DNA from: Protoeuglena noctilucae
Taxonomy: Eukaryota
NCBI GenBank assembly: GCA_958009085.1
Contig: OY253669.1
Span: 1,054,001 to 1,118,000, forward strand
Reading direction: 5' to 3'
DNA length: 64,000 nucleotides
Position numbers and translations under genes: made by a program. The notes beneath the pieces are model-generated. The model had not been told where the DNA came from, did no database searches, and was given only the letters and a program-made list of their open reading frames with translations. Shown here one piece after another: positions 3,960 to 64,000 of the stretch (the first letter of the stretch is position 1; each line of letters opens with the position of its first letter).

Positions 3960-6548
3960 ATGTCCTGGGCGTCGCCGCCGCGGTGCGGCTGCCGTCCCGG
4001 GCCCCTTGTTGACCCCAGTCCCTTTTTACGTGTGCACCGATCAGCAGCGTCGCTGCCGTCCAGGATGCCTGCGCGATTTGTGGAGCTTGGTATGAATGGT
4101 ACGTGGCGGGACTGGCGACGGCGCATCTCGCGATCCCGATCGCCGGGGCCGTGGTTAAAGGGCGCCTTGTCCGATTCGTCGGCCGGTTCCGTCGAGACGG
4201 TGCGGGGCCACGACTCGCTGACGATCCATGCGTGGGTGCCGTCGAAGCCCGTTTCGGAACGCCAGCATGGGGCGCACGGAGTCCCGCGGGTCCGGACGTA
4301 CACGCACCACGCCGGTTCCAAAAAGGCCGACCTTAAAGCTGCCCACGGAGGAGATCAGCCCGCCGGCGGGACTGTGTCTCCGGCACTGCCGTCGTTCGTC
4401 ACCATCCTCCTCCAGGTGGCCGTGTGTGCAGCAGCAGTCGTGACCGACCCCGGTGAGCCCAGACGAAGCTGCCTCTGACCTGATGCCCCACTCCGCATGT
4501 CTGCCGATGCCCAGGTGTGTCCCCTCGCTCGCGCAGTGATGGGCCTCATCGACGCGGCTTTCGTGGCGCGGCTGGGCACCGTGCAACTGGCTTCTATGGG
4601 CCCAGCCACCACGGTCTTCAACACCATCGCGATCCTGGTGTCTGCCTCCCTCGCCGCTGCGACCACGGAGACAGTGTCGGCTGCCCTGGGGCGCAGAGAG
4701 GCGGCCCGTGGAGTGGCGCCGCCTAAAAGGAGCCACAGCACCCAAGGCAATGCTCGCGCCGTCTCTTTCCTCACGGGGGGCGGCGACGCGGCTCTGGGTG
4801 AGGGGGCGGTGCCCTAACCCCACGCTGCACTTGCACGCTGCGATGACGACTGACTGGCTGGACTGGGCTGGGCTGGGCCACCCCTCGTGAGCCCGCCCTA
4901 TATGTGACACGTCAGGGTTATTGCTATCGCAGTGCGTGACCAGATGGGCACCGAGGCAGTCGCCGCCGCGAGCAACATGGCTGCCGAGAGCGCCCCGGGC
5001 CAAGCCCTGGGAGCAGCGCTGGCGACGGCACTGGTTTTGGGGACCTCGCTGGCTGCAGCTGTCCTGGTGGCGCCTTCTCAGTGGCTCTGTTACGCCGCCT
5101 GCGACCCGGCCCTCCTGCCCTACGCCGTGCCCTACCTGGCCATCCGAGGCGAGGCTCGCCTTGCCAGAATGGCACTTGCATGGGCATGGGCTGGCTGACC
5201 AGTGCTGAGGCGCAGGGAGGTCTGGCCTTGACTGAGACACTGAGATTGAGACTGGCCCTGCCCCGCAGCGCTGGCCCTCGTGCCCGGCGGCATGTTCATC
5301 GTGCTGCAGAGCGCCCTGCACGCCGCGTCAGACTTCCGCACGCCACTGACAGCCATGATACTGGGTGAGACGGACCGGCCTGCCCAGTCACACCCAATGA
5401 CGCAACTGGCACTCTCTGACACGTGCATGCTGACACCCGTATCCCGCCCATGGCCCCGCAGGCTCCCTCGTAAACGCTCTCCTGGACCCGGTCCTCATCT
5501 GGTGGGCCGGGTGGGGCCCCGCCGGTGCCGCGGCCGCCACGGTGGTCGCGGAGCTCTGCCAAGCCACGTATCTGACGGCCCACATCCTGACTGCGAAGCG
5601 TGACGTGTTCTTCCTTCCCCTGCCCCTGCGCAAGGCTCTCGCGGCCGCCCGGCCGCCCCTGGTGCGCAGCGAGCGGCGCGGCAGCACGCATGCTATTCAG
5701 CCACGTTTGTACATGGCCACCGCGCCTCCCATCAACCCACCCCGCATTAGCACCCCCCGCCGCTCCCTGGCCGCAGGACGCCGTGTCGCAGTTCGTGCGC
5801 AACGGCGCGGTGCTCATGACGCGAGCGGTCACAGTCGTGATGATCTGGACCGCCACGGGCTTCTCGGCGGCCAAGCTCGGCGTCGGTGCCTCCGCGGCCC
5901 ACCAGATCGTGCTGAGCCTGCAGCAGTTCCAGGCCATCGCCGTCGGGGCCTTCACGACCGTCGCCACCGCCCAAACGGCCCGGGCCCTGGCGGCGTCGGG
6001 CCCTCGCACCGCTGTGCGCGTCGGGCAGCGCGTCGCAACCCTGGCGCTCCTGGCGTCCGTGACGTTCGCGGGCGTCACCTGGGCGGCCCAGGGCCCGCTC
6101 CTCCGAGGGTTCAGGCGAGGGAGCGGTAGGCCAGGGCAGATGCATGGTCACATGATGCGTACCGCCCATAACCACCGGTGACATGTCCTACGCGTGTTAT
6201 CTGCCCTGCCGTCACCGCCCTTGCGTCCCCGCCATCGCCCGCAGCTCGGACCCCGCCGTGCTGGCCATGGCTGCGCCCGCCTTCGGCCCCATGTGCTGCA
6301 TGCTTGGCATCATGTGGTTTAAGGCGCTGGAGGGCTCGCTGATCGGCGTCGGGGACGGGGCATTCATGGCGTCCGCGTTTGCCCCGGGCGCTGGGGCTTG
6401 CTTGGCATGTCTTGCGTTAGGGCCACGCTTCCTGGGCCCAGACGCCGGACTCGTGACCGTGTGGATGGCCCTTCTGGCCTACTACCTCGCCGTCGCCTCG
6501 CTGCTGCTCGGGAGGTGGCTATGGAAGTGGCAGCCTCAGGGTATCTGA
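3960..6548 (+). CDS. MATE/DinF-family (DETOXIFICATION) transporter, probable transit peptide, 7 exons
   Basis: Motifs VTDPVMGLIDAAFVARLGTVQLASMG, YLAIRALA, DFRTPL, GPAGAAAATVVAE and AAHQIV. Introns at 5149 and 6115 have GC donors. Confidence 0.85.
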
Positions 6549-6824
6549 GCCATCCCGCATGCACGTCGCATTTGCCATCACCCGTGCTAATGCTGTTGGG
6601 TGACGTTGGCCAGCCCGCTCGCTCGGCAGCTGAGTATGAGAACCCGGTGACTCTTGCGGTGTGTTTCAAATGTCCAATCTTCAAGGGGCTTGAAGCGGGC
6701 GCAGAGAGTTCCAATTATGGGTCCGACGGTGGGAAACGGTAACACGCCTCTACTCGCATCGCTATGTCTACATCGCTAGTCTCCGTGTCACAACACAAAG
6801 GGGCCATGCGCACGCCACCTGCAT

Positions 6825-11796: not shown

Positions 11797-12059
11797 GGAC
11801 TCAGCTTCCCATGCTGGCCAGGCGCGAGCACATAGACTCCGCGCAACTAAGGAAGGCGCTCAGGAACGCGCGTGCCGGCATGGCCACATCTATGCGCGCG
11901 CCAACGGGCCTATTTCCCAGGATTGTGGCTGCACCGTCGTTGGGCAGGCGTGAAACCCCGGCTTTTCGCCTCCCCTTCTCGCCAGAAAGATGTGCCGCAA
12001 GCGCCGAGTGTGCGCGAGGGTGCACGCGTGCGCGCATTCCGTTCGCCAAGTCAGCCGGT

Positions 12060-13887
12060 ATGCAAGTCGCGCGCACCGCCTCCGTCCTCCCCGGGCACCG
12101 CACGTGCGGAGCGCAGCGGGCCCGCCCTGCGACGGCACCATGCCGGGGCCGGTCGGTGGTCAGGCGTGCGCTTGCGGTGCAGGAATCCTATAGCGCGCCG
12201 CAGGATGTGAACCCCCTCGCGGCGGCCCCGCCCTTCACGCTGCAGGTGCGGATCCAGCGCCGCTGCGCGTCGCAGGGATTCCCGGGGGGTTGCGCTGCCC
12301 ACAGCATCCGATTTATCGAAATGGTCGCATGCTGACGACCCAGGATCGCTGCAGGCGCCCCCCATGCGGCGCGGGGCGCATCCCCGCGTTTGCCTGGCCA
12401 GGAACGGACTTCTGCCGCAAACTCTCCCGCAGGATATCAGGAAGGCGATCCCCGAGCACTGCTGGGAACGCAACGCGCTCGCATCCATGGGTTACCTCGG
12501 TGATCAGTCGCTGCGGCCGGCCCCCGCCCTAGGTCTGTTGAAGCCGCCACCCGCCCGCGTGCTGTCGCGAGAAAGCGTCCTGGCCCTCCCCGCCCACAGC
12601 CCGCGACGTGGCCGTCGTTTTCGGTCTGGCATACGCCGCCTTCGCAATCAACCAGCCTTGGGTGTGGCCCCTGTACTGGGTCGCGCAGGGCACCATGTTC
12701 TGGGCGCTCTTCGTCGTCGGGCACGACTGCGGCCACCGCAGCTTCTCCAACAACAACACGCTCAACGACCTGATCGGCCACCTCACCCACTCGTCGATCT
12801 TGGTCCCCTACCACCCCTGGCGCATCTCGCACCGGTGAGGCGCTGGCAGCAGCGCGTCTTGAGCCTCCTAGCCGCGACCCCTGGAGACCGTGGAGTGTCC
12901 GCAAGTCGCGCCTCAGTTCGCCGCCCCCATCTTCTCCCCCTTGGGGAGGGCTTCCCTCGCCAACGGCTCACCCTCCCCTTTTGCCCCAGGACGCACCACG
13001 CGTACCACGGGCACGTCGAGCTCGACGAGAGCTGGGTCCCCACTCCCGAGTCCGAGTATCGGTCTCTCAACTGGTTCCTCCGGTTCGTGCGCTTCTTTCC
13101 CGTCGCGTCCCTGTTCCTCTACCCCTTCTACCTCGCCCAGGCCGGCCGCGGCTCCCACTACGACCCCAACGGGGCGCTCTTCACCGAGAGCGAACGGGGC
13201 CTCGTGGTGCAGTCCAACCTGTGGCTGACGGGCATGCTGGGCCTCCTGGCCTTCACGGCCTCCAAGATCGGCCTCGCCATGACCGCCGGCCTGTACTTCG
13301 TGCCCTACCTCGTCTTCGTCGCCTGGCTCGACTTCGTGACGTACATGCACCACCACGGCCCGGAGGACGGGGAGCGCGTCCCCTGGTACCGGGGTGAGGA
13401 GTGGTCCTACCTCCGGGGGGGCCTCTCGACGCTCGACCACGACTACGGCATCTTCAACAAGATCCACCACGACATCGGCACCCACGTTGTCCACCACCTC
13501 TTCCCCCAGGCGAGGACGCCTTCGCAGACTTCATGCGGCGGCTCCCCTGCTCTGCGCCGGCCTGGCCTTATCCGCGACACGCCTCTCCGCCCATGCAGAT
13601 GCCCCACTACCACCTCTGCGAGGCCACCGAGGCAGTCAAGCCCGTCATGGGCCCCTACTACCGCGAGCCCAAGAAGAGCGGGCCGATCCCCTTCCACCTG
13701 TGGGAGACCTTCTCGGCCGCCCAGGCGCGGGACCACTACGTGCCCGACACGGGCGACGTGGTCTTCTACCAGGTGAGGCCCGCGCTGTGGAAGGGTCCCG
13801 GCTGCTCGCGGAGTCGCCGCCGACCTCCCGCTGAGCTCTGGCCCCTCCTCGTCTTTGCAGACGGACGCAAACGTGCTGAAGCCCTAG
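12060..13887 (+). CDS. FAD7: Plastid omega-3 fatty acid desaturase, 6 exons
   Basis: His boxes HDCGH, HRTHH and HVVHH. Motifs [17 protein letters not shown] and [14 protein letters not shown]. Transit-peptide-like N-terminus. GC donor at 13510. Confidence 0.93.
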
Positions 13888-14264
13888 TCGCCGGGGGCGC
13901 ACAGGCATCAGTGCCCCGCGATCCGCCAATCCTATTTTCTTACGGACAGCTACCCTTCCCTCTATTGCACCACTTGATAGTCCACACGAACAGTGCCATG
14001 GGCTCCTGACGCACGGAGTCTGTACAGTTTAAAGGCCTGCACCGCTTTTGAAGGCGCGGTGGGTGCTGCCACGCGAGAGAGCTAGCGACTGGGACGCACC
14101 GCGTCGTGTTTGATCCGGCAGGAATCGTCGGAGGAACACAGGACAGAGTCCTGACAGGAGGTACCGTCTGACGTGAGCATTTCCAAAGCCTCCGGCGCGG
14201 GGTTGCCGAGCGACACTCCGCGCGCGCACGCAGACGTCCCCGTCTTCATTGCAAGGGGACCACC

Positions 14265-17200
14265 ATGACGACCGGGAAGGAGGAGTGCGTGAAAGTGGTG
14301 GTCAGATGTCGGTGCGTAGAAGCGGGGCGCGTCCCGGCGGGCCCGCGGCGCTCGCGGGGCCGGCGAGGTCGGCCAATCGACATGTTTGAGTAACCTTCCA
14401 CCGCGCAGGCCCCCAAACTCGAAGGAGATCAATGAGGGCCGCAAGAACATCGTCACGATGGACGTGAGCCGGGGGGAGGTGACGGTGGTGAATCCCAAGG
14501 CGGAGCCGGGCACCGCGCCGATGCGCTTCACCTTTGACCAGGTCTACGACATGGACACGCGTCAAATCGACCTTTACGACATCACGGCGCGATCCATCGT
14601 GGACAGCGTCCTGGACGTGAGCGCATGCCGAAGCCCCTTCGCGCCTCGCCGATTTTCGCCCCTGTTCCGAAGCCCTGACATCATCCCTTGGCTGCTCCCG
14701 CGCAGGGCTACAACGGGACCATCTTCGCGTACGGCCAGACGGGCTGCGGCAAGACATTCACGATGTCGGGGAAGGAGGACAGCGAGGAGCTCCGGGGCGT
14801 CATCCCGCGATGCTTCAGGCGAGGAAGGGGCTCATACGCTGCGCTCTAGGACCGGGACCAACGGCTGCAGCGCATCGGCGGGCTGCATGCGGACCGTGTC
14901 ACCACCGTGCCAACTTCGCAGGCACATCTTCTCGGCCATTTCCAACAACTCCGTGCGCCAGTACGTGGTTCGGGCATCCTTCCTCGAGATCTACAACGGT
15001 GGGTGGCGGCAGGCCCGGCTCCTCGCAGTCCCATGCGCCCACGCTGGCCTGCAATGTTGCTGGATGCAGGCCTTGTCCCCGCGCCGCAGAGGAGATCCGC
15101 GACCTGCTGAGCCGTGACCAGACTCGCCGCCTCGAGTTGAGAGAGAACGTGGAGAAGGGCGTCTACGTTCCCGACCTGTCCCAGCTCGCGGTATCGGGGG
15201 TGGCGGAGCTCGAGACGGTCCTCCAGGTCAGCGGCTGAGGTCCCTGAGGGTGTTTGACTGCCCTTTGCAATTACAGTAGCAAAAAGGCCTAGGAATCTTG
15301 TCCCACGCCCCTCGGCCCTCCCGCAGGTGGGAACCAAGAACCGCTCCACTGGTGCGACCAAGATGAACGAGGGCAGCTCGCGGTCCCATTCGATCTTCAC
15401 GATCACCATCGAGTGTGCGGACAAGGACATGGGTGAGCGCAGGGCCGCATGGGCCGCGCACGCTTGCCGCCTCGGCTGACGTTGCAGAAAGCGCCCAGGG
15501 GTGCGTTCCTGGTAGCGGTTGCTGAGTCACTCGGGCAACCTCGTCCCCGCAGACAACCCGGACTCGGAGGGCGGCACGGGCGGTCACATCCGGGTGGGGA
15601 AGCTCAACCTGGTGGACCTGGCCGGGTCGGAGCGGCAGGAGAAGACGGGTGCGACGGGGCAGAGGCTCAAAGAGGCCACGAAGATTAACCTCTCGCTTTC
15701 GGCGCTGGGCAACGTGATCAGGTGCGGCGCTGCCGTGGCCACGCTCCCCGGGCTCGGCGCAGGGTCGCCCCCAGCACCACAGCTCCTCCGCCACAGCATG
15801 CGGCACCCACCCGCCCCCGCCCCGTCGCGTCGCAGCTCCCTGGTGGACGGCAAGTCGCAGCACATCCCCTACCGCGACTCGAAGCTCACGCGGCTGCTCC
15901 AGGACAGCCTGGGCGGCAACACCAAGACGTGCATGGTGGCCAACATCTCTCCGGCGGACTACAACTACGACGAGACCATATCCACGCTGCGGTACGCCAA
16001 CCGCGCCAAGAACATCCAGGCGAGGCCGCCTTGCGATATTAGCTCGCGCGGCTCACTGGGACGGGCGCCCGAGCCGGGGGCGACGGGCGCGGGGCGATGG
16101 GACGACCTCACCACCATCATGCCGCCCTTGGCTCGTGCAGAACAAGCCAAAGATCAACGAGGATCCCAAGGACGCGATGATTCGGGAGATGCAGGAGAAG
16201 GTGGCGAGGCTGAAGGCAGAGCTGGCTGCCAAGGCCGGGGGTGCGCCCCCACCCCCGCAAGTGGTCAAGAAGGTCGTGGAGGAGGGGCCGGGGGAGGACC
16301 AGCTCCTCGAGATCCGCGAGAACATGATGAGGTGACGGCGGAGGCGCGCCTGGGGCCGCTGGGGGGTTATGGTGCCCAGCGAGTTTGCCGGAGGACGCGG
16401 CGCATGGTGCTCATGCTTCGCCTGGCACGATGCTCTGCGCAGGGAGCTGAAGGAGAAGATGGAGGCTGCGGCGAACGAGAAGGCGCGTGCCAAGGCGAAG
16501 GAAGACGCGGAGAGCATGGCCAGGAAGGCGCTCGAGGCGCTGCTGCAGGAGCAGAACAAGACGGACGAGCAGCGCAAGTGAGCGGGCGACGGCGGTGGCT
16601 CGATGCTAGCGGGCGACAAGGCGCGGCTCACTTGATACCACTGAGACCCCGAGTCTTGACGGGGCGCAATGTGGAGGTCTAACCCCTGCGACTTTGTTCT
16701 CAGGGCCATCCAGGCCGCTCTCGCGAAGCAGCACGCGGAGATGGAGGCCTACGCGTCGCAGATCGAGGAGGAGCAGCAGGAGAAGGAGAGACTGGAGGCG
16801 CAGCTGCGGGAGATCGAGAGCAAGGTGGGGCCGGGAGGCGTGCTTGGTCAGAGTGACTCTGAAATGACGTCTTTTGGCTCTCTTGTCCGAGCAGTGCGAA
16901 TGCTGCACCGGCAGCGCGTGGTGCCTGCTTGAGGCAGCACGCCCGTGACCGTCAGCAAAACCCTCTGGCTGTCCATACAGGTCCTGGAAGGCGGGGTGAA
17001 CTTGATCGAGCAGGTCGAGAAGCTGGAGAGGGAGGGCGAGGATATGGAGCGGAACATGATGATTCAGAGGCGGCAGGAGGAGGAGCTGGCGCGGAGGCTG
17101 AGGTGGGGAGCGGCGAGGGCGGGCGCACGTGCGACGTGTCTTTCGCTTTGACGCACAACTCAGCTAGTCCCCGCGGCCATCGCTCGCAGAGAGCTCAAGG

Positions 17201-18133
17201 AAGAGGAGATGCTGGAGCAGAAGAAGTTCAAGGACGTGAAAGAGGAGGTGGCGGCCATCAACAAGCGCATCACGGAGGTGCAGCAGCAGTACGACCAGCG
17301 CATGTCCGAGGTGAACGAGGTGCAGAAGATCCATCAATTGGAGCGAGAGGATCTGCTCGGCCAAATCCGGGAGCTGGAGCAAATCATCAAGCTGAGGTGC
17401 GGACGGCACGAGCGCCAGCGGCGTGCGCCTGACTCCGGCACGCCGCGCCCGGTCGGTCTAACGCACAGCAACTGCACTGCGCCTGTCACGCAGGGACCTC
17501 GTCATCTCGTGGTTCATTCCGCCCGAGTTCCTCGCGGTCATCAAGGACCACTGCTACCAGGACCCCACCACGGAGGACTGGGTCGTCAACAACGCGCACT
17601 TTGCGGGGAACGCCGCGCGCGAGCAGGCGGAGGCCGCGGAGGCCAACCGGGTCCGCGCCATGGACGCCAGCTCAGACGCGGCCGACACGGCCAGCGTGTA
17701 CTACAGGCAAGCGGCCGCGACCCGGCACGACGCAACGCGGGTGCACAGCTTGCAGGCTGCGTTTGGCTGCAGCCGACCGGGCTCGGTCTCCGCTCGTTTG
17801 CAGCTACAAGCAGCTCAAGGGGGAGGACAGCGGGCAGGGCCGCTCGGGGTCGGCGGGCAGCGGCACGGGCCGCGCGTCGGGGATGGGGAAGAAGCGGCCG
17901 CAGAGCCGCATTGGGTCGATAATGGCGCGGCCGTCCTCGACGCGGGAGATGAAGGCGAGGTCGCCTCCGCAGCGGCAGTGCCAGGTGCTTCGTGATGGCT
18001 TTGTGACGGACCCTTGCCCTGCTCTCCTTTGCAGGTGCCCACCGACGCTCATCAGGGCAAGGCGGGTGGCCGACCACCTCCTGCATCGGCTGGGGAAGCC
18101 ATTCCGTGGGCGAGGGGGCTGGTGAAACGGTAG
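14265..18133 (+). CDS. FLA8: Kinesin-II motor subunit (FLA8/KIF3B-like, intraflagellar transport), 16 exons
   Basis: Motifs [67 protein letters not shown] and [12 protein letters not shown], then coiled coil and C-terminal ARGLVKR. Confidence 0.9.
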
Positions 18134-18493
18134 GTGCCATTGTCTGGCAGCGCGTGGCGACAGTCACTGACAGTGTGATGCATGTCGCCTTCCTGCGCTC
18201 AGATTGCCCATCGCCGAGAGCATGGTGCAGTTCCAGTTGCAAATCTCGTGCGCTAGAGACGCGTAGTTTTGTGCATAGGCACAGCCCCGAGGAAATCCCC
18301 CAAGTGCCGTGAATTGTGAACCGGACTGTGCGCCCCGTATCCCCTGCAATCGCTTGTGCTGCGCATTGCGCGATTGCGTCGCTGCCGGGGGACCTAATGC
18401 GCGGGGAGTTGCGGGCTGCGGCTGCGCTGCTCCGCGGGGGCCAGGCCGCTTGCTCGAGCTCAATGTCTGAGCCGTGGTGAGTCCCTGAGAACC

Positions 18494-19243: not shown

Positions 19244-19414
19244 CACGAAAGTTCAGGGCACTGCGTCAGGTTTTCTGGGCCGTCTTGTCTTGCAGGCCTC
19301 CAGATCTCTTGCCACTTCTCACACGGATGGACATAGCTGAGATATTTTGACTGGGCGCTGGAGAACTTGAAGTAGAAGAGGTGGCACGCCGGTGTGGGCA
19401 CTTCGCCACGCGCG

Positions 19415-20423: not shown

Positions 20424-20484
20424 GCCGGGCAGCGCTGCACGTAGCGTGGTGCAGCGTGCACCCCACCGTTCCATGCACGTTTTC

Positions 20485-22855: not shown

Positions 22856-24814
22856 ATGGCGGACAGGGACACGGCAGCAAAACGCTTGAGCGTCATCGCT
22901 GGCCACCTGGCCTCGAGCGCGACGGAGGGCGTGGCGGTCCAGCCCTGCTCCGGGCTCTCCCCTCAGCCAGCGGTGAGGGACGCCGAGCTGCGTGCACTTT
23001 TTTCCATGATAAAGGAAAACGTTGTACTGCGAAGCATGCCGCAGATGTGCCTGTGCGCGTCAAGGGCGCCTTAGATAAATGCGAGGGATCAGCTCCCCGC
23101 GGGGCGTCGTAGGCGGGAAATTGGAGCGCCTTTCCTGCGCGCTGGATGGAGATGAATTACTGGAACGGCTTGGGTGCAAAACTGCCCTTATATCTTTCAC
23201 CGCTCGCAGGCCCCGCGATACACCAACGCGTCCATTGGGACCACCCCGTCGAGCTACCAGCGCATCCATGGAGAAGTGTCGCGTGAGGTGAGGTCTGCAT
23301 ATTTGGCTCGTATTGCGCCTCTCGCACGCGCGGAGCGATAGAACCGTGCCCGCACGAGGCGCGGCACAGGCCACCGACCCCTGGCCCGCAGCTGGTGTCC
23401 TGGAAGCGCGTGGCCACGCTGGGAGGGCGGGAGCTGAAGGAAGTGATTTATTCGAAAGCCGTCGGAGAGGCCATCGTGAAGATCTCCATCAACCGGCCGG
23501 AGCGCAGGAACGCGTTCACGCCCCTCACGGGTACGTCGGGCCCGTCACCGCACATGCGTTGTAGCGCCCTGCCCGCTCGGTCGAGTCTTACTCTGCTCCG
23601 GGCCCGCAGTCACGGAGATGTCCTGGTGCTTCGCCGACGCTCGCGACGACCCGGCTGTGGGCGTGGTCATCCTGACGGGCGAGGGTCGGGAGGCCTTCTG
23701 CAGCGGCGGGGACCAGGCCGTGCGCGGGAAGGGCGGGTACGTGGGCACCGATCAGATCCCGCGACTGAATGTTCTCGACCTGCAGATTCAGGTGCGGCAA
23801 AGCGCGTCTCATGCTCACATGCGCAGTGCTGCGATGCACGTTGGCCCGCCCCCGTTGTTGCCGGCAACATGCCACATGCCACATGCAGCATACCACGGCC
23901 CATGGTGTTGCCTGCGCAGATCCGGCGGATGCCGAAGCCGGTGGTGGCCATGGTCGCCGGGTACGCGGTGGGCGGGGGCCACATCCTGCACATGATGTGC
24001 GACCTGACCATTTGCGCCGACAACGCGGTGTTTGGGCAGACGGGCCCTAAGGTGACGAGTTGCTTTGGCACATCGCGTGTCGTTGAAGTGCACCGGCGGG
24101 AGCAGCGACCGGACGGAGCTTGTGCCTGCGCCGCCCGCAGGTGGGCAGCTTCGACGCTGGGTACGGTTGCTCGGTGATGGCGCGGCTGGTGGGGCAGAAG
24201 CGCGCGAGGGAGATGTGGTTCCTGGCGAGGTTCTACAGCGCGGACCAGGCCCACCGCATGGGCCTCGTCAACACGGTGGTGCCCTTGGACCAGCTGGAGG
24301 GCGAGACAGGTGAGGCGGCACTTGCAAGGGGAGGGATGGGGCTGGGGCAAACTGCAGTGGACCGCATGGCTGCGGTAACCACGCGTGGTATTGAGCATCG
24401 CGTTTCGCGGTTAGTATGTCTCGGAGCAGTTGGGTCAGGGCTGGCAAGTTGATGAACCACCGCCATTTGTTCCCTCCACGCAGTCAAGTGGTGCCGGGAG
24501 ATGCTGCGCAACAGCCCCACGGCGCTCCGGCTGCTGAAGAGCGCTTTGAACGCCTGCGAGGACGGCCATGCCGGCCTCCAGCAGCTGGGGGGCGACGCGA
24601 CGCTGCTGTTCTACCAGGCGAGGCGCGCAGAGTAACACCGGAGCGGGGGGGCTGGCCGGGGTGGAGTTACATGTCAGCCCCCTGCCCTGACCGTGTTGTC
24701 TATCAAACGCTGCGTATCTCTGCAACATCGCAGACGGAAGAGGGCAACGAGGGCCGCCAGGCGTACATGGACAAGCGGCCCCCGGACTTCGGCAAGTTCC
24801 CGCGGTACCCGTGA
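22856..24814 (+). CDS. menB: 1,4-dihydroxy-2-naphthoyl-CoA synthase with N-terminal PTS2, 8 exons
   Basis: [53 protein letters not shown] and [11 protein letters not shown]. The PTS2 reads RLSVIAGHL. Confidence 0.95.
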
Positions 24815-25026
24815 TGGGGTTCGAAGGCCCGACGTGGCAGCCGGCCTGGGCGACTAGCACCCTTGCGCCTATTTCCGCACTCTCTGCAACCGCTTCTCGT
24901 ATCACCGACCCCTTGATAGCGAGACGACGACATGCGCCCTCTCCACGCCACAGCGCAGCCGGTAGTAGCCTTCAAACCCGACAGGAAACAGAATGCTCGC
25001 AACTAACTCAGCGAACGGCGGTGCGA

Positions 25027-32429: not shown

Positions 32430-34488
32430 TCATTCGTCGAAGTCGTCGCCAAAGTCGTCGTCCATCATGTCCACCTCCGCCTTGGGCGCCTTGGTCGCCT
32501 CCTCGATGATCTTCTTGATCTCCTCGGGGTCCTGCGATGCCAGTGAACAACACAGCGATTGCCATACATGCTACTCTGGGTCCTGCCAAGGCGATGGGCA
32601 GCGCGGCGACATGCGCAGCCGAGGCGACATCGACGGTGCCTGCCGGACGTGCCGGCGCAGGGGCATGTGTTGGCGCCCTGCGTTGCGTTACACAGCGCCG
32701 AGGCCCCGCCGGCCCCGCCCCTCACCTGCATGTCCGCTGGGACGTCGTCCGCATCCTCGGACGCTGTGCTCTTCTTCTTGCGCAGGCGAGAGGTGAGCTT
32801 CGACAGCCAGCCCCCGCGCTTGGCGCCCTTGCCCTCGATCTCGTCTGCGACGGCGTGCGGGACTGGCGGTGGCGGCGGCGGCGCGGTCGAGGGCGCAGGG
32901 AGGGCGAACGCCTCGCAGCCGCAGCCCACACGGCCCGGGATGGCCCCGCGGCCTCCGCTGCGCGAGATTCACCTGCCACCTCCTGCGGCAGGTCCTTCTT
33001 GTAGAACGGGTGCTTGAAGATCTCCGGCACGGTGATCCTGCGGCGACGCAGAGCCACAGGCGTCTTTCTGCCATGGCCCGTAGGATCGCCACAGGCTCGA
33101 GACTTGAGAAAAATTCTCTCAGCAAGCAGTTCCTCGCCTGGCCTCCGGATCAGCCACGAGCATCTTCTTCATCAGGTCGATGCACGGGGGCGAGAGGGAG
33201 ATGCTTGGAGGGATGGTGTACTGCACGTTGATGATGCGCTGGAGGGTCTTCTGGAAGTTCTTCGGGTCCTGGGGATCCTCAAAGGGGTACCTGCGGGCCG
33301 AGTCGACGCGACGCGGTGCCCGCGCAGCCACTGGGCGGCTCGCACGCCTTGCCAGCCCGGTCGCCCGTCACCTCCCGCAGAGCATGACGTAGAGGGTCAC
33401 GCCCGCGGACCACACGTCCGCCGGCTCCCCCGCGTACTCGGTGCGCAGCAGCACCTCCGGCGCGATGTAGGCTGGCGTGCCCACGGTCGAGTTGGGCGCC
33501 GACTGCATGACCGCGTTCTTCGAGTAGCCGAAGTCTGCGATCTTCACGTGCGGGCGGTCGCCGGGCGCGTCGAGGAGGATGTTCTCCAGTTTGAGGTCCC
33601 TGCGGGGGAGCGGAGGGGCAGGGGCCGGTCACATGCCGCTCTGCAGGGGGTCGGGTGTGGCGTCACAAGCCCGGGCACCCCGGCCCTCGCCTGTGGCAGA
33701 CCCCCTGCTTGTGACAGTGGTACAAACCGACGATGATCTGCTGGAAATACCAGCGCGCGTCGGCCTCGCTGAGGTGCTGCGGAAAAAGCGAGCTGGCGGG
33801 TCGTGACCCTCGCCGTGCGCTACGCCAGGCCGGCCAACGCCCCGCTCGCGAGGCGCGTCGAGACGAGGCATCCACACGCGCCCTTGCGACCTGCCTTGGC
33901 GCTCCGGACGCGCTTGAAGAGCTCGCCGCCCTCGGCGAATTCCATCACGATGCACAGGTCCGTCTTGGTGACGTACACCTCTCGGAAGCTCACGACGTTG
34001 GGGTGCTGGAGCGTCCTGCGGAGCACGGCGCCGGACCGGGGGATGAGGGCGGGACTGCGGGCCGTGCTTCCGGCATGTGCGCTTGTGCCGTCCCCGCCGC
34101 CCCAGCGGCCGGTTGGCGAGGACCGACGCCAGGACAGCGACGTCTGTGGTACATGGAGCGTCCGGACCACGCCGACGCGTCCCCGGGGGCGGCCCGCGAG
34201 CCTCGCCTGTGGTTCAGAATTTCACGCTCGACATGCCTCGTTATCTGCGATCCCCGGGGCAGGAACTTGATGGCCACCTGCTCCCCAGTGAGCTTGTCCT
34301 TGGCGAGCATCGCTTGGCCGAAGTTCCCCTTCCCCAGCTCGCGGATGAGCTCGTACTGCGGGCCATGGTGGCGGGGGGGCCAGCGTGTCGGCCAGCGATA
34401 CACGATGCGGTGCACTGACGATCAAATCGCGTGCAGCGGGGCATCGCACCCGGGCCTCGCCCTTGAGCTCCTTCCCCGAGTCCGCCAT
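32430..34488 (-). CDS. SnRK2: SnRK2-family Ser/Thr kinase, 9 exons
   Basis: [31 protein letters not shown] and [14 protein letters not shown]. SnRK2 box [13 protein letters not shown] and an acidic tail. Confidence 0.92.
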
Positions 34489-38259: not shown

Positions 38260-38323
38260 GATCAGCGTTTCGCAAGAGAAGAGCGATGAGTGCCACCGAT
38301 TCGTGCAGGGGACGACAAGCGCG

Positions 38324-38548: not shown

Positions 38549-41273
38549 ATGGACACCACGAAGATGTCCATCGCGGGCATCGGCGTGTCGGCTCACGGCC
38601 TGGACATTCCGTGGGCGGCAGTGTTCTCGAGCAGTTTTGGACTCTCGAAGGCGCGGGGGCATCGGCGGCGGTTCCCGCAGCCTCGGATGCGTCGTGGCTG
38701 ACGATTCATAACATCCACGTGCTGCCGTGGTCCGCAGAAGGAGGCGCACTTCATGCTGATGGCCATCCTGTCTGTCCCGAACGGCCTGGTGTGGGGTCTC
38801 ATGCCTCGCGGCGCAGGCGAGTCCGTTTCCGCATCCTGCTGGGTCTCCGCGCTAATACTTTTAAATTGTCGCGGGCGCGACGGTCCCCGAGGGCCCAAGC
38901 CTCTCACCGCGCGTCTTGTGGGCCCCTCCCGCAGCACGACACCTCTACTCGCTGTTAAGCGGCCTCCTGATGATGTTCGCCGTGTTCGGCATCGATTCCC
39001 TCGAGGTCTACATCCCCGCGCTTGTGGTGTACGCGATCATGCTCGCAGCTCCCAGGCAAGTCCACGACCGGCGCGCACAGCTCCCCTCCGCCGCTCGCCG
39101 GTCGAACCCGGGCCACCGTCGCGCCGCCGGACGCCCTCCGCAGGCACGCCGGCCTCGCGTCGTACTTCGTGGCGTTCCCGTATCTGATTTGGATGCACAC
39201 GGTGCACGGCAGCGGGGACGCGTGGCGCAAGGGTGACCTGGACTATACAGCGGTGATGATGCTGGTGGCGCTGAAGGTGGTCAGCATGGCGCAGAACTAC
39301 AGCGACGGCGTCAAGATGGGCGCGGAGAAGGCCGCGAGGCACCCCAGGGCCCTCACGCGGTGCCCGACGGCGCTTGAGATGCTGGGGTTCGTGACGATGG
39401 CGCACAGCAACCTGGTGGGGCCAGCGCAGGAGGTCAAGATGTACCTGCAGTTCTGCGACGGCGAGGCGAGTGATGAGAGGGGTTTTGGTCACGTGCGCCC
39501 AGTGTGCCTTGCCAGAACTGTCAGGGCCATGCCGGACAACGTGACACCACCACACGCTCCACGCCACGCTTCAGTATATGCCATGCCACACACACGAGGG
39601 ATGCGTGGTACCCGTGACCATTCGAACCATTCTTTATCGCCCCTGCCCATTCTCTCCTTTGTCGTTCAAACCCAGGGCGAGTATGCCGCGCGTCCCAAGC
39701 GGGGCGGAGACGTCTGGACCCAGGCTCGGTACTTCCTGGGCACTCTGGCGCGGTTCGTCCTGTTCCTCGCGGTCTACGTCCACTTCAACGACGTCTTCTC
39801 CCTCGACACGATCACGGGCGGCGCATCCCAGGTCATGACCGCCACGCACGCGACGCGGTTCGGCAGCTGGGCGCCCTTCAGCCAGTGGTGGCTGCCGACC
39901 AAGACGTGGTACGGCGACATGTACATCCTCTTAAACGTCCAGAGCAAGTACTACGCGCTGTGGTCCCTGTGTGAGCTGGGGATGGTTCTGGCGGGCATCA
40001 GCTTGCGTGTGGACGACAACGGCGACGGCCACTGGGACCGGTTCCGAAACTTCGAGGCGTGGAAGCTCAACACGGCGTCCTCGCCCAACCGCATGCCGCT
40101 CTTCTGGAACGTAGGCACCGGGAACTGGCTCAGGTGAGCATTGCGGGTGGGCGGGGGCGGAGTGTTGCCACGTCTAGTTGCCAGACTATGTACACCGCTG
40201 TACCACCCGCTGTACCATCTCCTCTTCTCTGGCTCTGTCTCCCTCACTGCACCACTCCCTGTACCAATCAATACCTTCTCTCTCCTCTAACCATTATACA
40301 TAAACTAATACATGTTATCCTCTCGACCGACTCGGCAGGTTTTACGTCTACGAGCGCAAGTGCTCTTCTCTTTAATTACATATATAACTTTTACATATAA
40401 TTATGCATGTCCTCTTGACTGGGCAGGTTCTACGTCTACGAGCGCATTCTGCTGGACGCGGGTGGCCGGCCCACGCCCCTGTCGCTCCTCGTCACGCAAA
40501 TGGTCTCTGCGCTGTGGCACGGGCTCTCCCCGGGGTACCTGTGGTTCTTCTTCACCACGGCGCTCTTTTTCGAATCCGGAAAGGCGAGGGACATGGCTGT
40601 GGGTGTGGCGATAGCACTATCTGTGGTAAGGGCACTGTGGTCCACGACTGCGGTTGGTGTGACTTCCATGGCAATGGCAATGGCAATGGCACGCACCGTG
40701 ATGGTCCATGACTGCCATTGGCATGACTGCCGTCTAACAAGGCTGTGCCCACCCCGCCCCCTGCAGACCATCTACCGTTACCAGCGCGCCAGCAAGAGCC
40801 CCGCCGTGCAGATGGCCCTGCAGGCAGCCAACTACGTCATGGTGAGTCGCAATCACACGATTGCAATCATAAGCAACCCCATGCAACCTCTAGCCATGAC
40901 GCAACGCCCCACCGCCCAGCAGCCGCACGCGCTTGCAACTCAACTCTTCTCTCTCTCTCTCTCTGCTCACCCGCAGTGCCACATCATGATGGGCCAGGCG
41001 GGCCCGGCTTTCATGGCCCTGACGCCCGCCCACACGTGGCGCATCATTAAAGAGTTTTACGGGTCCGCTCAGATCCTCTGCATGGTTATCATCATCGTTG
41101 GCATGGTGGCGCCCCCCGCGCGGGAGCCAAAGGCGAATGCGGGGGTCGTGGGGGGCAAGGCGGCGGGCAGGGATGGGGCAAAGGATGGGCTGAGGGATGG
41201 GGCTCGGGCGGCGGTGTTGGACGGCAAGAGTGCGGATGGGGCAGTGCAGGGCAAGGCTGGCAAGACCGAGTGA
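38549..41273 (+). CDS. MBOAT lysophospholipid acyltransferase (LPCAT/LPLAT-like), 8 exons
   Basis: LDYTAVMMLVALKV, NYSDG, KYYALWSL, WNVGTGNWLRFYVYER and VSALWHGLSPGY (catalytic His). Confidence 0.9.
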
Positions 41274-44700: not shown

Positions 44701-47700
44701 GCACCCGCAGCCTCCTCCGCCCCCGCCCGCCACCCCACCACCCGCTGCTGCCACTCGGATGTCTTCATCTCCTGCCACGTGGTGCCCAATGCGGCCGCGA
44801 TCTCCCGAATCGCGTCCTGCAGTTTCTTCACCGTCGCCGCCTCCGCCCTCCGCTGGTCGACCTGCGTTTTGTTCGCGGCCGCCGCTGCAGCTGCTGCCGC
44901 CTGCGTGCGTGCCCCCGCCTCCTCCCTCAAGGCCGCCGCTGCCTGCCGCCCCTCTTCGGCCTTCGCCCGGGCGGCCTGCAGGTCCCTCTGCACCAACTCC
45001 AGCTCTGCCTTCACCGACTGGGGGTGGGTGAGGGGGATGAGTTTGGGGCGGGTGAGGGGGATGAGTTGAGGGTGGGTGAGTGGGGTGCACTTGTGGAGGG
45101 GCGGGATGGAGCAGGGTGAGGATGCAGGGAGTCATGAAGACGAGGGGAACACGAAGGTACAAGAGAGCTTGTCAGTGCCTCGCACCACCATCACCCTCTA
45201 CCCACCCCACTTCACTCCCACCCCACCCATCACTCCCACCCCATCCCACCACCCCACCATACTCCACCATACTGTCCTCACCCCACCCAACCCCACCCCA
45301 CCCCACGTCACTCCCCTCATCGCACCCCCACTCCACCCACCTGCAGTTCCTGCTTCACGGCGTTGTATTCGTCCACGTCGACCCTCTTGTACTTGTCCAG
45401 CAGCTGCTGCGTCCTCTTCTCCCACCGCGCGGCCTGCTCCTGCGCCGCAAGCAGCTCTGCACCCCGCGCCTCCGCGGCTGCCCTGGCCTGGGCCAGTTCT
45501 CTCTCCAGGGGCTGGATGCGGGACTCGGCGTCGCCCAGGCGCTTGCGCTCCAATGCCAGGGACTCCTGGAGCCGCACCGTCTCGGCCCTGCGAGGGTGGG
45601 GGTGGTGGTGAGGGGGTGGGGTGTGGGGTTTGGGGTGGGGGGTAGGGGTGGGTAGCGAGTGGGGCAGGGAGGTTGTGGCATAGGGGGGCATGGTAAAGCG
45701 TGCCGGGTGCTTGGCCATTGGCCCCTCGCCCAACAATATCGCACCCACTATGCACTGCCACACACGATGCCACCCACCATGGACCCCCCATGCACCCCTA
45801 CCCCTCGCCTGAGGCTGTTGTTGCTCTCCCGGAGCAGGTTCGCCTGGTGCGCCTGCTCCATGAGGCGACCGTGCTGCGACTCCTGAGCCGCCGCATCCCT
45901 GCCCCGCTGCTCCGCCCCCTCCAACTCCTTACGCAGGGCGTCGCTCTCCAGGCGGGCGTCCTCGGCGCGGCGCTGCCAGCGCAGGCGCTCCTGCTTGGAC
46001 TGCAGGGGGGGTGGGGGAGTAGAGAGGGCTGGAATGGATGTGGGGATGTGATGGCAGGGAATCCTGCTTGGACTGCAGGGAAGGTGGGGTAGAAGAGGGG
46101 GGTGGAATGGGTGTGGCGGTGAGAGGGTGGGCAGAAGTGGGATGAAGGGGTGGGGAGCACGTTTGCTCAGATTAGCGTTCGATGCCCGATATCGACAACC
46201 CCGCACACCCTTTACCTCCCCTCCATCGCTCCACCCGCCCCTCACCAGCATGACCTACGGTAGCCTCACCCACTCTGCACCCACCCAGTCCTCACCAGCA
46301 TGAGCTCCGCCTCCACTCTCTCCTTCTCCCTCCTCAGATACTTGAGCACCTCGTTCAAGTCACCCGCAGCCCCGCCCTCCCCCGACGCACCGCCCTCCCT
46401 GCCCGCCCCCGCTGCCACGGCCGCCGCTGCCTTCTGCTCCAACTGCAGGCGATCATGAGTAAAGTCAATGATAGTGATAACCGAAGCGTGAAACAGAAAA
46501 TCAGATTTTGCGTCCCTCCATTTGCTTTTAGAGGTGAATCCATGCTGCGCCCTACAACACCCTCTCTTGTTCCCACATCAATTCCCTCAGCACATCCCGC
46601 TCTCCCATCTCCCCGCTTCCCTCCCCCTCACCTGCTGCGTCAGCACATCCGCCTGCGCCCTCATCTCCCTCTCCCTCGCCTCCCCCTCCTGCCGCTCCCG
46701 GACCAGCGCCGACTCCAACTCCGCCACACGCCGCGACGCATCGCGCTTCTCTGCAGACAGCTCCTCCAGCTGACGGGCTGCGGTGACAGAAGTAGTAGAT
46801 GACGGCGTGAGAGACGACACATGACGGATCAATGGACCATGTGATTGATACCAGCATTACTGCTACTGCGAAGCGATCAGGGTAGAAGACGACCACCCCA
46901 CCCCCCCACCCATCTCACCCATCTCCTGCACCCTCGCCTCCCTCTCCTCCCACTGCCGCTTCATGGCGTCGTGCTTCTGAATGTGCTCCGCGTGCTGCAC
47001 CACCTCGTTGTTGTACGCGTCCTGCATGGACCGCCAGTTGCGGTGGTGCTGGTCGGCCATCTGCTGCAGCGCGGAGTGGCGGGCCTCGGCAGCTGAGAGC
47101 GACTCCCGGGCGCGGGTAAGTTCTTCGGTAAGGGCGGCGCGGGAGGACTCGCCCTCCCGGCGACCGCGCTCTGCCGCCTCCTCGGCCGCGTGTGCTGCAC
47201 GCTGCGGGGGCGGAAGCGGCGGGGGAAGGGTGCAAAGCAGGGCGTCATTCAGAGCCACTGTCTAACCAACGCCGTCGCACCTTACACGTCCCAGTCACAC
47301 CACCACCACCACCACCCCTCACCTGCAGCTCCGCCACCTCCCCCTGCGCCCTGTCGAGCTCCGCCTGCAGCTTTGCGATGCGCTGGGCCTGCTCCTCCGC
47401 GGCCCTCTCCGCCGCCTGCGCCTGCTCCGCGTGCTTCGCCGACAGAGCACGAACCGCCTCGTCGGCGGACTCGGCCAGAGCACGATACTCGTTGACGTGG
47501 CCCTGGGCGGCGGCCGCGGAACGCAGGGCCTGGTCCCGCTCCTCCCTCAGGCGGTCGAGCTGAGGGGGAGAGGAGGGGTGGGGGTGAGAGTTGTGAAAGC
47601 AGGGGTCGATGCGGATGGCGACATGGGGTGGGGGGCGTGGGTGGTCGGGATCGGTGCAGGTACAAACATCTCCCACATTCCTCTCACCTTGGCCCTGAGC

Positions 47701-50700: not shown

Positions 50701-51701
50701 TGTGCACCTCCAGCAGCTGCTTCTCCTGCGCCGAGCGCGCCGCCTCCGCGCGCGCCTCCGCCGCCTCCGCCTGCGCCCGCCGCGACGACTGCTCCGCCTG
50801 CGCCTTCTCCTGAGTCAGCTCCACCACGCGGTTCACTTGCTGCAGCAGGTCCGTCGCCTTGGCGTCCAGCTCCGCCTTCCGCTGCTCCAGAACCAGCAGC
50901 AGGGACGCCTGCGGGCGCGGCCAGCTGATGCGGTCGACACGCTGCCCGGCGCGGGCGGCCAGACAGGTGAGTGGCACTGGTTGTGGGCACTGTAGAGAGC
51001 CCAGGCCACTCGCCTCTGAGCCTTTGTGGATCTCCGCCTCCCGGCGAGCCTTGGCGGCTTCGCCCTGCAGCTCCACGTGCGCGATGCGGAGGTCCTGCAT
51101 CTCGCGCTTGGCTTCCGCAAACGCCTTGGACAAGTCCTGGCGCTCCTGCTGCAGCGCCCGGACTTCCTGCGAGGGAAGCGGCCGGCGCGGGCGCGCGATG
51201 CGTGCCGCGCATGGCCAATCCGCATCCTTATAGCTTCCTTGCGCTAACTACATTCCAATCCGCACCTTCTGAGACCTGTCCAGCTCGCCCTGCAGCTCCA
51301 GGACCTGCGCCTCCTGCTGTCGCGCCTGCCGCTCCCAGTCCTCCGCCGTCGTCTCCGCCTGGAAGCAAAGAGGAAGCGCAGCTTTTTTTTGAGGCACCGA
51401 AAGGCAAGCAGACGGTGGCGGGCGCGCGGCGAGCACAGGGACAATCCAAGCGCGTTTGCTCGGCTTGGCGCGCCCCCGGAGCGCGGGATCCGCGATCTGT
51501 CCAGGCGCCCGCGTCGAGCCAGTTCTATAGCAGGTGGCCAGCACGCGGCGACAGCAAAGGGAAGGTGGAGGCCGATGCGGAGGCGACTGATGGATACGAC
51601 ACCGAAAACGCGTCGCCCTCTTCCCAGCCCACCTCTTCATGGGCCCGCCGGAGCTCCTGCTCCAGCTCTCGAATCCGAGATTGCAAGTCCACCCCCTCCA
51701 T
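41795..51701 (-). CDS. TPR: Nuclear basket nucleoporin TPR/Mlp1/NUA
   Basis: Long coiled coil with [71 protein letters not shown] and [15 protein letters not shown]-rich C-terminus. Confidence 0.88.
41987..42118. repeat. 12-nt minisatellite (CCCCACTGC[C/T]CA)x11 in the last TPR intron
   Basis: Tandem array seen directly in the sequence. Confidence 0.95.
43965..44535 (-). repeat. Coding Glu/Gly low-complexity tract (GAGGGN repeats) in TPR
   Basis: Translates as EGEGEGEE. The plus strand is almost entirely C/T/A. Confidence 0.9.
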
Positions 51702-61829: not shown

Positions 61830-62227
61830 TGTGACGACTGCCTTGCTGGGGGAGCAGAAGGCCGCGCGGAGACGGTCCGGGTAAATGCGCGCGGGGAAGG
61901 GCCGCGCGCTGACGAGTTCCCCCGGGACAGTAGCAAGGAGAGATCCGACCCCCGCGACCCCCGTGACGTTGGGTCGTGACGACTGCGCGAGCCCGGCAGC
62001 GACGGGGGCCGGTCGGTCCCGCGCGGTCGTGAAACAGCGGTTAATGGCGAACTGCCCCCAGCACTTCCTGGCCCGGGGGTGCGCTCATCGTGCCATATTC
62101 CCATCGGCGACGTCGCATTCGGAGGTCGGGCGTCATTGTACTGGCCCTGTCGCGTCAACCGAGGTCGCTCGCGTCAGCCCGTCGACGGATGCCCAGCTCG
62201 ACGGTCGCTTCGCTTGCGCGGATCTAG

Positions 62228-64000
62228 ATGTCCAAGCGTGCAATCGACAGTTCGTCCGAGCCGCGGGGAATCCAGGAAGGCGAGGGTCTGCAGCGCCCAG
62301 GGGATCCGTTGCGCCTCGCCTCCCCGGCCCCGTGTCTTGTATTGCCTTGCTATGGCGTGCCTGTGGCGGCGGGCTCCCTGGCCCCGCGGGGACGCGGAAG
62401 GCGCTCCCTTCCGAGGCACGGCAAGGGACCCCTCCCCGCGCTCCCTGCGTTTGGCGGGCCGAGGCACGCCTGGCACCCCTAGATTCGACGACTCGTGTGC
62501 TTGGGAGCGTGCCCGGGATCGGCCAGCCCGGCCCAGGGGCGCAGATCCAGCGGGCCCACCGTGCGCAGCGCGTGCTCCGGACATGCGCGGCCAGCGCGCA
62601 CCTGCGGGCCTCGGGCTCGCCCCCGCGACGGCCGAACTGCGTGGCGCCGGAGTGGCCGGGGCTAGCTCGGGGCTCCGATCGCTGGGCGTGGTCTTTGCGC
62701 GCAGTGAAGCGTGTGAAGGGCGACAAGATGGCAGCCGGGGCGAAGGGCGCCACGAACGGCGCAGATGCGCACATCGATGAGGATCTGCACTCCCGGCAGC
62801 TCGCCGTGTACGGCCGGGAGTCGATGGCGAGAATGGCGCAGGCGAAGGTCCTCATCTCCGGCATGCGGGGCCTGGGCGCCGAGATTGCGAAGAACGTCAT
62901 CCTCGCGGGCGTCAAGGCCGTCACCCTGCACGATGCGGACGCGGTGGAGGTCGCCGACCTGTCGGGTGGGCGCTGTTCTGTGGTGCCCGCCTCGCTGCGG
63001 AGGGCGCCATTGACGGTGCCTTCCCTTGACTCGCCGCCCCCCGCCCCTGCAGCGCACTTCTACCTGCACGAGGACGACGTGGGCAAGAACCGCGCCGAGG
63101 CCTGCCGCGACCGCATGCAGGAGCTGAACCCGAGCGTCACGGTCACCGCGTCGTCCTCGCCCCTCAACGACGGCCTCATCTCCCAGCACTCCGGTGAGGC
63201 GCAGCTGTAGGTGCAGAGCGAGCGTCGGGGTGGATAAGGGCGTGGGTCTGTGGTGCCGGCTGACTCCTCTCCCTGGGAGGAGCGGTTTTTGCCACACCGC
63301 CCGGACCACCCAACCCTGGGCCCATCCCGCTGGCTCAAGGGTGCCGTGCGACGTGCTGCAACCCCCCTCCGCAGTGGTGGTGGTGACGGAGACGGACTAC
63401 GAGTCGAGCGTCGCGGTGGACGAGGCGTGTCGCCGTGCCGGGGTCGCGTTTGTGCGCGCCGACATCCGCGGGGTGTTCGGGCAGATCTTCTGCGACTTTG
63501 GGGACCAGTTCGTCGTCACGGACGTCGACGGCGAGGTGCGGGACGAGTTGCACCTGGTTATAGGGCCGTCACGCTGGCTTCAGGCAGGGTCGACCCAGGT
63601 CGAGACGCCCTTTGCTCTGTGCCCCGCCGCAGAACCCTCGCACGGGCATCGTGGCTGGGATCGAGAGCGGCCACCCCACGATGGTCTGCTGCATCGAGGA
63701 CGAGCGCATTGAGTTCCAGGAGGGCGACATCGTGGAGCTGTCCGAGGTGCGATGGGGCGTAGGGCGTGGCAGACATTGATCCTAGGCCTGGCTCGTTGCC
63801 ACAGATGATATGACACAATCACAGATAGAGGCAAAAGGTGCATGTAACAAGAAGCACTTAAGATTGTGCAGATGGCACCACACAGCATCACATCACCCCA
63901 CAGCGTCGTCACCCCACACTGTCACCCCCACGGTCCCACCACCGCCCCGCAGGTGAAGGGCATGGAGGAGCTGAACGGCGTGCAGGTCCGCGTGCTCTCG
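62228..64000 (+). CDS. UBA1: Ubiquitin-activating enzyme E1, 3'-partial
   Basis: IDEDLHSRQLAVYGRE, GMRGLGAEIAKNVILAGVKAVTLHD, GVFGQIFCDFG and EVKGMEELNG. The upstream exon 62228-62279 is inferred, and a second ATG lies at 62728. Confidence 0.95.

Follow-up and report, generated by a model that had tools for sequence, protein, structure and literature searches.

Abundant GC-AG introns in a 64-kb window of the Protoeuglena noctilucae genome

Are the introns of the green alga Protoeuglena noctilucae really opened so often by GC in place of GT and, if so, what lets them be spliced? The question was raised by a 64-kb stretch of contig OY253669.1 (1,054,001-1,118,000), hereafter the window, from which all counts below were taken and to which all positions are relative. 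A sequence-only reading of the window had claimed that about one third of its introns use GC donors, and had proposed that 5′ splice-site recognition is altered in this organism. RNA contigs, spliced protein alignments and an ab initio gene finder confirmed that GC donors are really used in the window, far more than ten times as often as is typical of plants, and between about one quarter and one third of the introns there start with GC.

GC donors located by transcripts and proteins

About half of the sampled words of positions 12001-22000 were present in RNA runs X1-X4, all from one study and representing at most three samples; this is the share expected from spliced transcripts. Contigs of these runs were aligned to 22501-42500 with zero mismatched letters, which gave 34 joints. 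For 15 of these, every cut position within the ambiguity range was enumerated and the readings that open with GT or GC and close with AG were kept; each joint left one sole reading, which was GT..AG at ten and GC..AG at five. MenB had six GT joints (introns within 22973..24483, plus strand) and one GC joint (24618..24733, accag/GCGAGG, the slash marking the exon-intron boundary). The SnRK2-like kinase gene, on the minus strand, had four GT joints and four GC joints with donors at 33137, 33690, 33894 and 34206, the introns being 33038..33137 (gccag/GCGAGG), 33600..33690 (ccacag/GCGAGG, at the CHR/DLK site), 33777..33894 (gccaag/GCAGGT, joined as CT..GC with no shift needed) and 34016..34206 (ccacag/GCGAGG). 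After removal of the introns, clean open frames of 343 amino acids for MenB and 353 amino acids for the kinase were obtained. The counts previously made by eye, 1 of 7 donors in MenB and 4 of 8 in the kinase, were thereby reproduced, and the proposed check of sorting RNA junctions by donor, run here on 22501-42500, ruled out nearby GT donors at the five joints.

For the kinesin-2 gene FLA8, a purpose-built protein-to-genome spliced aligner was used in which GT and GC donors carried an equal penalty, and 20 of at least 120 kinesin-2 homologues were aligned, namely the best by tblastn score together with named green algae. The alignments returned the same 4 GC donors among 15 introns as the sequence-only reading, all on the plus strand. 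Two of them, 14819..14921 (ttcag/GCGAGG) and 16020..16140 (atccag/GCGAGG, splitting AKNIQ/NKPKI), were called by all 20 homologues, and at the former a GT-only reading broke the motor-domain alignment. The other two, 17707..17803 (ctacag/GCAAGC) and 17955..18034 (atgaag/GCGAGG), were placed by homologue P0068, which was 85% identical to the window FLA8 overall (636/750) and 100% identical over 15900-16200 and 17493-18140, stretches that span the GC junctions at 16020, 17707 and 17955. With GC donors forbidden, the P0068 score fell from 2983 to 2746, a cost of 237, and conserved motifs were broken; the GT-only option for 17707, at 17698, deleted three residues, and that for 17955 inserted mismatched residues. 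Two GT donors of FLA8, toward its 5′ end, were less certain in position, 14312 (17/20 homologues) and 15415 (9/20, the runner-up being a GC donor at 15417 with 3/20); the gene finder described below placed them at 14285 and 15433, both GT.

Since they are spliced, P0068 and the MBOAT homologue P0122 (below) are presumably transcript-derived sequences. The stretches of full identity between P0068 and the window FLA8 lie in the C-terminal two-thirds; over an N-terminal motor stretch (14700-15000) P0068 was about half identical, and it could have been assembled as a chimera or contain a paralogue. Among named proteins, the closest FLA8 was that of a pedinophyte (58% identity). Two kinesin-2 entries labelled "UNVERIFIED_CONTAM ... 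Acipenser sinensis" (P0001 and P0002) led the E-value list of the homologue search, and the former ranked third by summed tblastn score against the window FLA8 region, consistent with the contaminant label. The closest relative locus found was a metagenome contig of 69% G+C (L001), in which FLA8 (1655-3832, plus strand) was 69% identical and formed a single uninterrupted frame, as against 15 introns in the window, beside a 9.5-kb intronless frame (4340-13831, minus strand). This near relative is therefore intron-poor and offers no FLA8 introns for an orthologous comparison; tblastx of the window against the contig returned composition noise alone.

The MBOAT gene lies on the plus strand. A search with an RNA-verified exon found P0122, whose spliced alignment was identical at 369 of 370 positions; no named identical protein was present in the database searched with this exon. 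The alignment fixed three GC introns, 39056-39143 (tcccag/GCAAGT), 39466-39675 (ggcgag/GCGAGT; an RNA piece begins at 39674) and 40584-40766 (ggaaag/GCGAGG), and two GT introns, 40134-40426 and 40842-40976. Two further GC introns, 38651..38737 (tcgaag/GCGCGG, a weaker context) and 38817..38934 (gcgcag/GCGAGT), came from the ab initio model and were supported indirectly by depth arithmetic, in which depth is flat along each Logan contig and depth per bin therefore measures the exonic bases in the bin. With these two introns included, predicted and observed X1 depths in four bins were 2.68/2.74, 11.38/11.40, 13.91/13.90 and 11.38/11.40, and X3 agreed in the same four (28.2 predicted and 28.2 observed in bin 38509-39175); a fifth bin, 40510-41176, disagreed, at 10.62 predicted vs 12.0 observed for X1 and 26.3 vs 30.3 for X3. 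The 5 GC donors of 7 noted earlier in this gene are thus made up of three placed by P0122 and two by the model with depth.

It was also noticed that an in-frame piece of 111 nucleotides of an MBOAT exon (39220-39330, plus strand), ending gac/GCGTGG..GAGAAG, was missing from P0122. The piece looks like an exitron whose GC donor is weak. It was not counted as an intron, as its removal would drop 37 open-frame residues and, according to depth arithmetic, it is kept in the X1 and X3 contigs.

A nucleotide-sugar transporter gene (plus strand) was predicted to have one GC intron, 35266-35382 (ccgcag/GCAAGC), and three others, 35541-35627, 35898-36004 and 36461-36552, by the same combination of ab initio model and indirect depth arithmetic. 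An RNA piece ends at 35260, just before CGCAG/GC, 463 exonic bases were predicted for the depth bin, and predicted and observed depths were 12.29 and 12.30 (X1) and 13.61 and 13.60. The GT-AG intron at 36461-36552, supported by an RNA contig, lies 3′ of the last Pfam match of the transporter, and the contig continues to 36966, where it is overlapped by a minus-strand model (36343-37262); this could reflect a transporter gene extended at its 3′ end or overlapping convergent transcripts.

Share, context and distribution of GC donors

Summed over these five genes, each with at least one GC donor (MenB 1/7, kinase 4/8, FLA8 4/15, MBOAT 5/7, transporter 1/4), 15 of 41 supported introns were of the GC type, that is 37% (exact 95% confidence interval 22-53%); the probability of 15/41 under a rate of 1.2% is 7e-19. 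This figure includes the two MBOAT GC introns and four transporter introns supported by depth arithmetic; the set called verified below comprises 35 introns, 12 GC and 23 GT. On the verified set we trained a gene finder that combined codon log-odds, donor and acceptor weight matrices and explicit introns of 55-350 nucleotides; an intron penalty of 7-16 bits was discarded, as it over-predicted and fused genes. With one gene left out at a time, 33 of the 35 introns were recovered exactly, including all 12 GC donors with no false GC donor; in the two that were missed, both in FLA8, the GT donor was displaced. Across the window it predicted 34 GC donors among 134 introns with a GC prior of 0.3 and 23 among 130 with a prior of 0.005, or about 18-25%; outside the verified set the figures were 22/101 and 12/98, respectively. 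Of the 24 gene models with a score over 20, 17 contained GC donors; these models are spread along the entire window and over the two strands, and the share per gene ranged from 0/3 to 5/7. The observation of abundant GC donors is confirmed; the window-wide share of about 18-25% is below that of the genes counted in the sequence-only reading.

Careful comparison of the verified donors revealed that those with GC fit the U1-complementary consensus outside position +2 better than those with GT. Exonic AG at -2/-1 was present at 12/12 GC and 14/23 GT donors (p=0.015), as had been noticed by eye; A at +4 together with G at +5 at 11/12 vs 9/23 (p=0.004); and both features together at 11/12 vs 5/23 (p=1.6e-4). 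Mean matches to CAG/GTAAGT outside +2 (of 8) were 6.08 for GC and 4.65 for GT donors (p=2e-4). All 12 verified GC donors fit GC[GA][AG]G, and eight of them start GCGAGG, seven of these after CAG. In other organisms, too, the remaining 5′ splice-site positions of GC-AG introns are stronger than those of GT donors. When donors were divided by context, GC accounted for 11/15 verified and 12/22 ab initio donors of the strong form AG/GY(A/G)AG, and for 1/18 and 8/76 weak-context donors, respectively, the contrast in the ab initio set being partly built in through a GC matrix trained on strong sites; the minus-strand model at 36343-37262, which overlaps the spliced plus-strand transcript, was excluded from these counts. 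In intron interiors C/(C+T) was 0.64. Position +2 thus looks nearly neutral between T and C in strong sites, whereas weak sites keep T.

In length the two types were alike, with 125 nucleotides for GC and 128 nucleotides for GT introns (range 79-293 among the 35). The GC..AG termini were fixed by the five RNA joints and six junctions from P0068 and P0122. The U12-type donor [AG]TATCCTT and branch motif TCCTTAAC were found at none of the introns, the few matches in the window all lying away from intron boundaries, and no intron matched another at E<0.01 when the 35 verified introns were compared all against all by blastn-short. Acceptors were unusually uniform, with CGCAG as the last five bases in 27/35 (GT 20/23, GC 7/12), for example at 23383-23391 and, on the minus strand, 33600-33608, and the GC introns lacking CGCAG mostly end in TGCAG.

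The donor motif itself was over-represented: AGGCGAGG occurred 27 times in the window against 5.3 expected, a count reached by 0 of 100 shuffles, and AGGTGAGG 14 times against 2.9 expected from shuffles. At least three of the 27 AGGCGAGG matches, a trio 36-42 nucleotides apart at 44550-44635 (minus strand), belong to coding sequence for E-A-R repeats in the coiled coil of TPR and have no donor role, so that the raw counts overstate the number of donors. The three sites cited in the sequence-only reading, CCCCAG/GCGAGG at 13510, ATCCAG/GCGAGG at 16020 and CACAG/GCGAGG at 33690 (minus strand), read as claimed.

Further candidates were found in other genes. In the FAD7-like desaturase, the GC-AG intron 13510..13598 (plus strand, ccccag/GCGAGG) was indicated by the sequence itself and by the ab initio model, and direct reading bore out that its donor is forced by a conserved motif, the exons joining as VVHHLFPQ/MPHYHL. 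In the TPR nucleoporin, candidate GC-AG introns 50909..51013 (tcagag/GCGAGT) and 45588..45808 (cctcag/GCGAGG), both on the minus strand, were called ab initio and by alignment of P0124, a 45%-identical relative that agreed with the model at 10 of about 21 TPR introns, two of them GC, its alignment being unreliable in the C-terminal part. A homologous-protein search with the 743-amino-acid TPR frame gave nothing at E<=1e-10, and a search of representative proteins gave P0123 (276 amino acids), which matches one end of the query with 100% identity and spans no junction. The gene finder also proposed two MATE introns on the plus strand, 5149..5268 (tccgag/GCGAGG) and 6115..6244 (gttcag/GCGAGG); these are the two GC donors reported earlier in MATE, the first being the start of the region then delimited, to which the model added a weaker third. 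At the other end of that region, it proposed a UBA1 intron, 62280..62536 (plus strand, aggaag/GCGAGG), with a weak acceptor of 1.2 bits. One junction in VPS28 was ambiguous between a GC donor at 19902 and a GT donor at 19908.

Gene identities were assigned by scanning stop-to-stop frames of at least 100 amino acids against Pfam. This upheld the gene names proposed before (MatE, FA_desaturase, kinesin, VPS28, ECH, protein kinase, MBOAT, TPR and ThiF), ECH being the family of MenB and ThiF that of UBA1; NDUFAF6 and a PAC-like gene were not among the genes recognized. On the plus strand were MatE (from about 4.5 kb), the FAD7-like fatty-acid desaturase (12.2-13.8 kb), the kinesin motor of FLA8 (14.3-18.1 kb), VPS28 (19.5-20.3 kb), the enoyl-CoA hydratase family member MenB (23.3-24.5 kb), an ankyrin protein, the nucleotide-sugar transporter (34.7-36.3 kb) and MBOAT (38.5-41.3 kb); on the minus strand were ATG5, the SnRK2-like kinase (32.4-34.5 kb) and the TPR nucleoporin (about 42-51.7 kb). 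Mitoribosomal L37 and a UAA transporter were also recognized, and ThiF (UBA1) lies at the right end of the window. Two long coding-like models, 6889-11212 (minus strand; 10 predicted introns, one of them GC) and 2265-3734 (plus strand), matched no Pfam family at E<=1e-4, except for a weak match to the ENGASE1 C-terminal Ig domain at 2103-3731.

Possible causes of the GC donor abundance

The abundance of GC donors is probably due to ordinary U2-type GC-AG introns, built up by GC-biased substitution at those 5′ splice sites whose other positions compensate for C at +2. By this account, introns of the major spliceosome would carry C rather than T as their second base. Substitution pressure, in a window with 67% G+C overall and 64-71% in every 4-kb bin, would drive T to C. 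Donors that otherwise fit the consensus complementary to U1 and U6 (exonic AG, then G-C-G/A-A-G) would still be spliced with C at +2, T and C at this position of strong donors would drift to a roughly neutral ratio, and weak-context donors would have to retain T. A quarter to a third of donors could then be GC without any change in the splicing machinery. We infer both the mechanism, mutation pressure with threshold selection, and a canonical machinery. Several points weigh against this account. GC content alone fails to predict the level, as Micromonas RCC299, with 64% GC, is reported to have 2.7% GC-AG introns (PMC3033335), and a lineage-specific factor is therefore needed; the data come from one 64-kb window, from RNA runs of one study and from 15 of 34 joints; and ab initio prediction gives 18-25%, less than the 37% of the supported set. 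With a GC matrix trained on strong-context sites, weak-context GC donors may be under-called.

As proposed in the sequence-only reading, the splicing machinery of this lineage could instead discriminate less against C at +2, owing to changes in U1C, LUC7, PRP8, U6, U5, modification of small nuclear RNA (snRNA) or a variant U1. The GC share in the window, 18-37%, is far above the 2.7% and 7.7% reported for the other GC-rich green algae Micromonas RCC299 and Chlorella (PMC3033335), and the near-neutral T/C ratio in strong contexts would fit very weak discrimination at +2. We nevertheless consider such a change unlikely. Because GC donors need more compensating consensus than GT donors (11/12 vs 5/23), U at +2 appears still to be preferred, and this speaks against a U1 variant with better pairing to C; moreover, the U1 5′ ends described for Aureococcus, M. 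pusilla and Micromonas RCC299 are canonical (PMC3033335). Within the window itself no snRNA gene was found, Rfam giving 0 hits over the 64 kb, and no splicing-factor domain turned up in the Pfam scans. Of the altered 5′ splice-site recognition proposed at the outset, what holds is a usage well above that of plants, while a C-adapted U1 is argued against by the stronger context of GC donors; discrimination at +2 may conceivably be relaxed at the level of proteins. It is likewise doubtful that the spliceosome treats T and C at +2 as selectively equivalent in near-consensus sites and that this gives the highest GC-AG share of the green lineage.

That the high share is confined to the window or to certain genes, with a genome-wide value of a few percent, is improbable. 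Only 64 kb were covered, genes vary from 0/3 to 5/7, and outside the verified genes the share runs from 12/98 to 22/101; against this, GC donors are spread over both strands in 17 of the 24 models scoring above 20, and even the GC-hostile prior of 0.005 leaves 23/130. The recurrence of GCGAGG at 8 of 12 GC donors, seven of them after CAG, might suggest a transposon-like introner family carrying its own GC donor, of the kind proposed for some algae and dinoflagellates, all the more as introners occur in GC-AG-rich species such as M. pusilla and dinoflagellates (PMC11282704). We hold this to be very improbable, as the 35 introns gave no cross-hits, range from 79 to 293 nucleotides in length and resemble one another at splice-site positions alone. 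Least credible of all is an artefact of hand counting, in which nearby GT donors are used or the introns are of U12 type. In its favour, the VPS28 junction is ambiguous between 19902 and 19908, but five RNA joints admit GC..AG alone, the FLA8 alignment loses 237 in score and its conserved motifs are disrupted once GC donors are forbidden, no intron carries an [AG]TATCCT donor or a TCCTTAAC branch motif, and at the 13 junctions backed directly by transcripts or by identical proteins the artefact is refuted.

Comparison with GC-AG introns in other organisms

Across 121 plant genomes the mean GC-AG share is given as 1.2% (PMC6310983), in line with the approximately 1% assumed for plants in the sequence-only reading. 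That reading had looked for precedents among haptophytes and dinoflagellates, and both groups do provide them, Emiliania huxleyi among the former; it had missed the green algae. Iwata and Gotoh (2011, PMC3033335) list 39.6% for Aureococcus anophagefferens, 22.2% for M. pusilla, 7.7% for Chlorella sp. and 2.7% for Micromonas RCC299; they give the canonical U1 5′ end, AUACUUACCUG, for Aureococcus, M. pusilla and Micromonas RCC299, and call the cause of the abundance an enigma that is not attributable to U1 sequence. For E. huxleyi, 56% of 241 manually curated junctions are reported as GC-AG in a genome of 65% GC, and the authors credit GC content (PMC4028052). Aureococcus strains are put at 14-17% and Pelagomonas at 14% (bioRxiv 10.1101/2024.10.30.620910), and a link between GC-AG abundance and high genomic GC is drawn in all three of these sources (PMC3033335, PMC4028052, bioRxiv 10.1101/2024.10.30.620910). 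Among the rows for four genera in the supplement of PMC6310983, the highest annotation-based green-algal figures are 7090/124,435 major non-canonical sites in C. sorokiniana and 496/8831 in M. pusilla. Our literature search, whose coverage lay outside subscription journals, found no green alga reported above the 22.2% of M. pusilla. The share found here, 18-37% on 41-134 introns of one window, is at or above that figure, and the organism thus appears to match or exceed the highest values among green algae.

These figures bear on annotation: gene finders restricted to GT donors would mis-model a large share of the genes here, and a GC-donor model is needed. GC-AG abundance alone shows no new splicing mechanism, and the context data suggest a threshold picture in which strong sites leave +2 almost neutral and weak sites constrain it. 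If it were true that a U1 small nuclear ribonucleoprotein component, PRP8 or snRNA modification had changed, the organism would be a test case for the cause of GC-AG abundance.

The introns described here share with the U2-type GC-AG introns of plants and animals the GC..AG termini, a stronger remaining 5′ splice site and the lack of U12 motifs, and differ from those of plants in a frequency 15-30 times higher than the 1.2% reported (PMC6310983). Their high proportion is also seen in dinoflagellates with introner-derived GC-AG introns (PMC11282704), which the window introns do not resemble in having mutual sequence similarity. Like E. huxleyi, the organism combines GC donors with canonical AG acceptors in a GC-rich marine alga; unlike that haptophyte, in which GC is the majority donor, it is a green alga in which GC is the minority donor. 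The closest likeness is to the GC-rich algae Aureococcus, M. pusilla and Chlorella, with high GC content (67% in the window), GC-AG introns tens of times the usual 1% or so, and similar lengths of GT and GC introns (128 vs 125 nucleotides here); M. pusilla and Chlorella are, in addition, green algae. M. pusilla has 0.86 introns per gene (supplement of Pucker et al., PMC6310983), in contrast to about seven per gene in the verified genes of the window. GC-AG abundance and its connection with GC content were already known, green algae included, and what is new is one more organism, an intron-rich chlorophyte that joins the few GC-rich algae known to abound in GC-AG introns.

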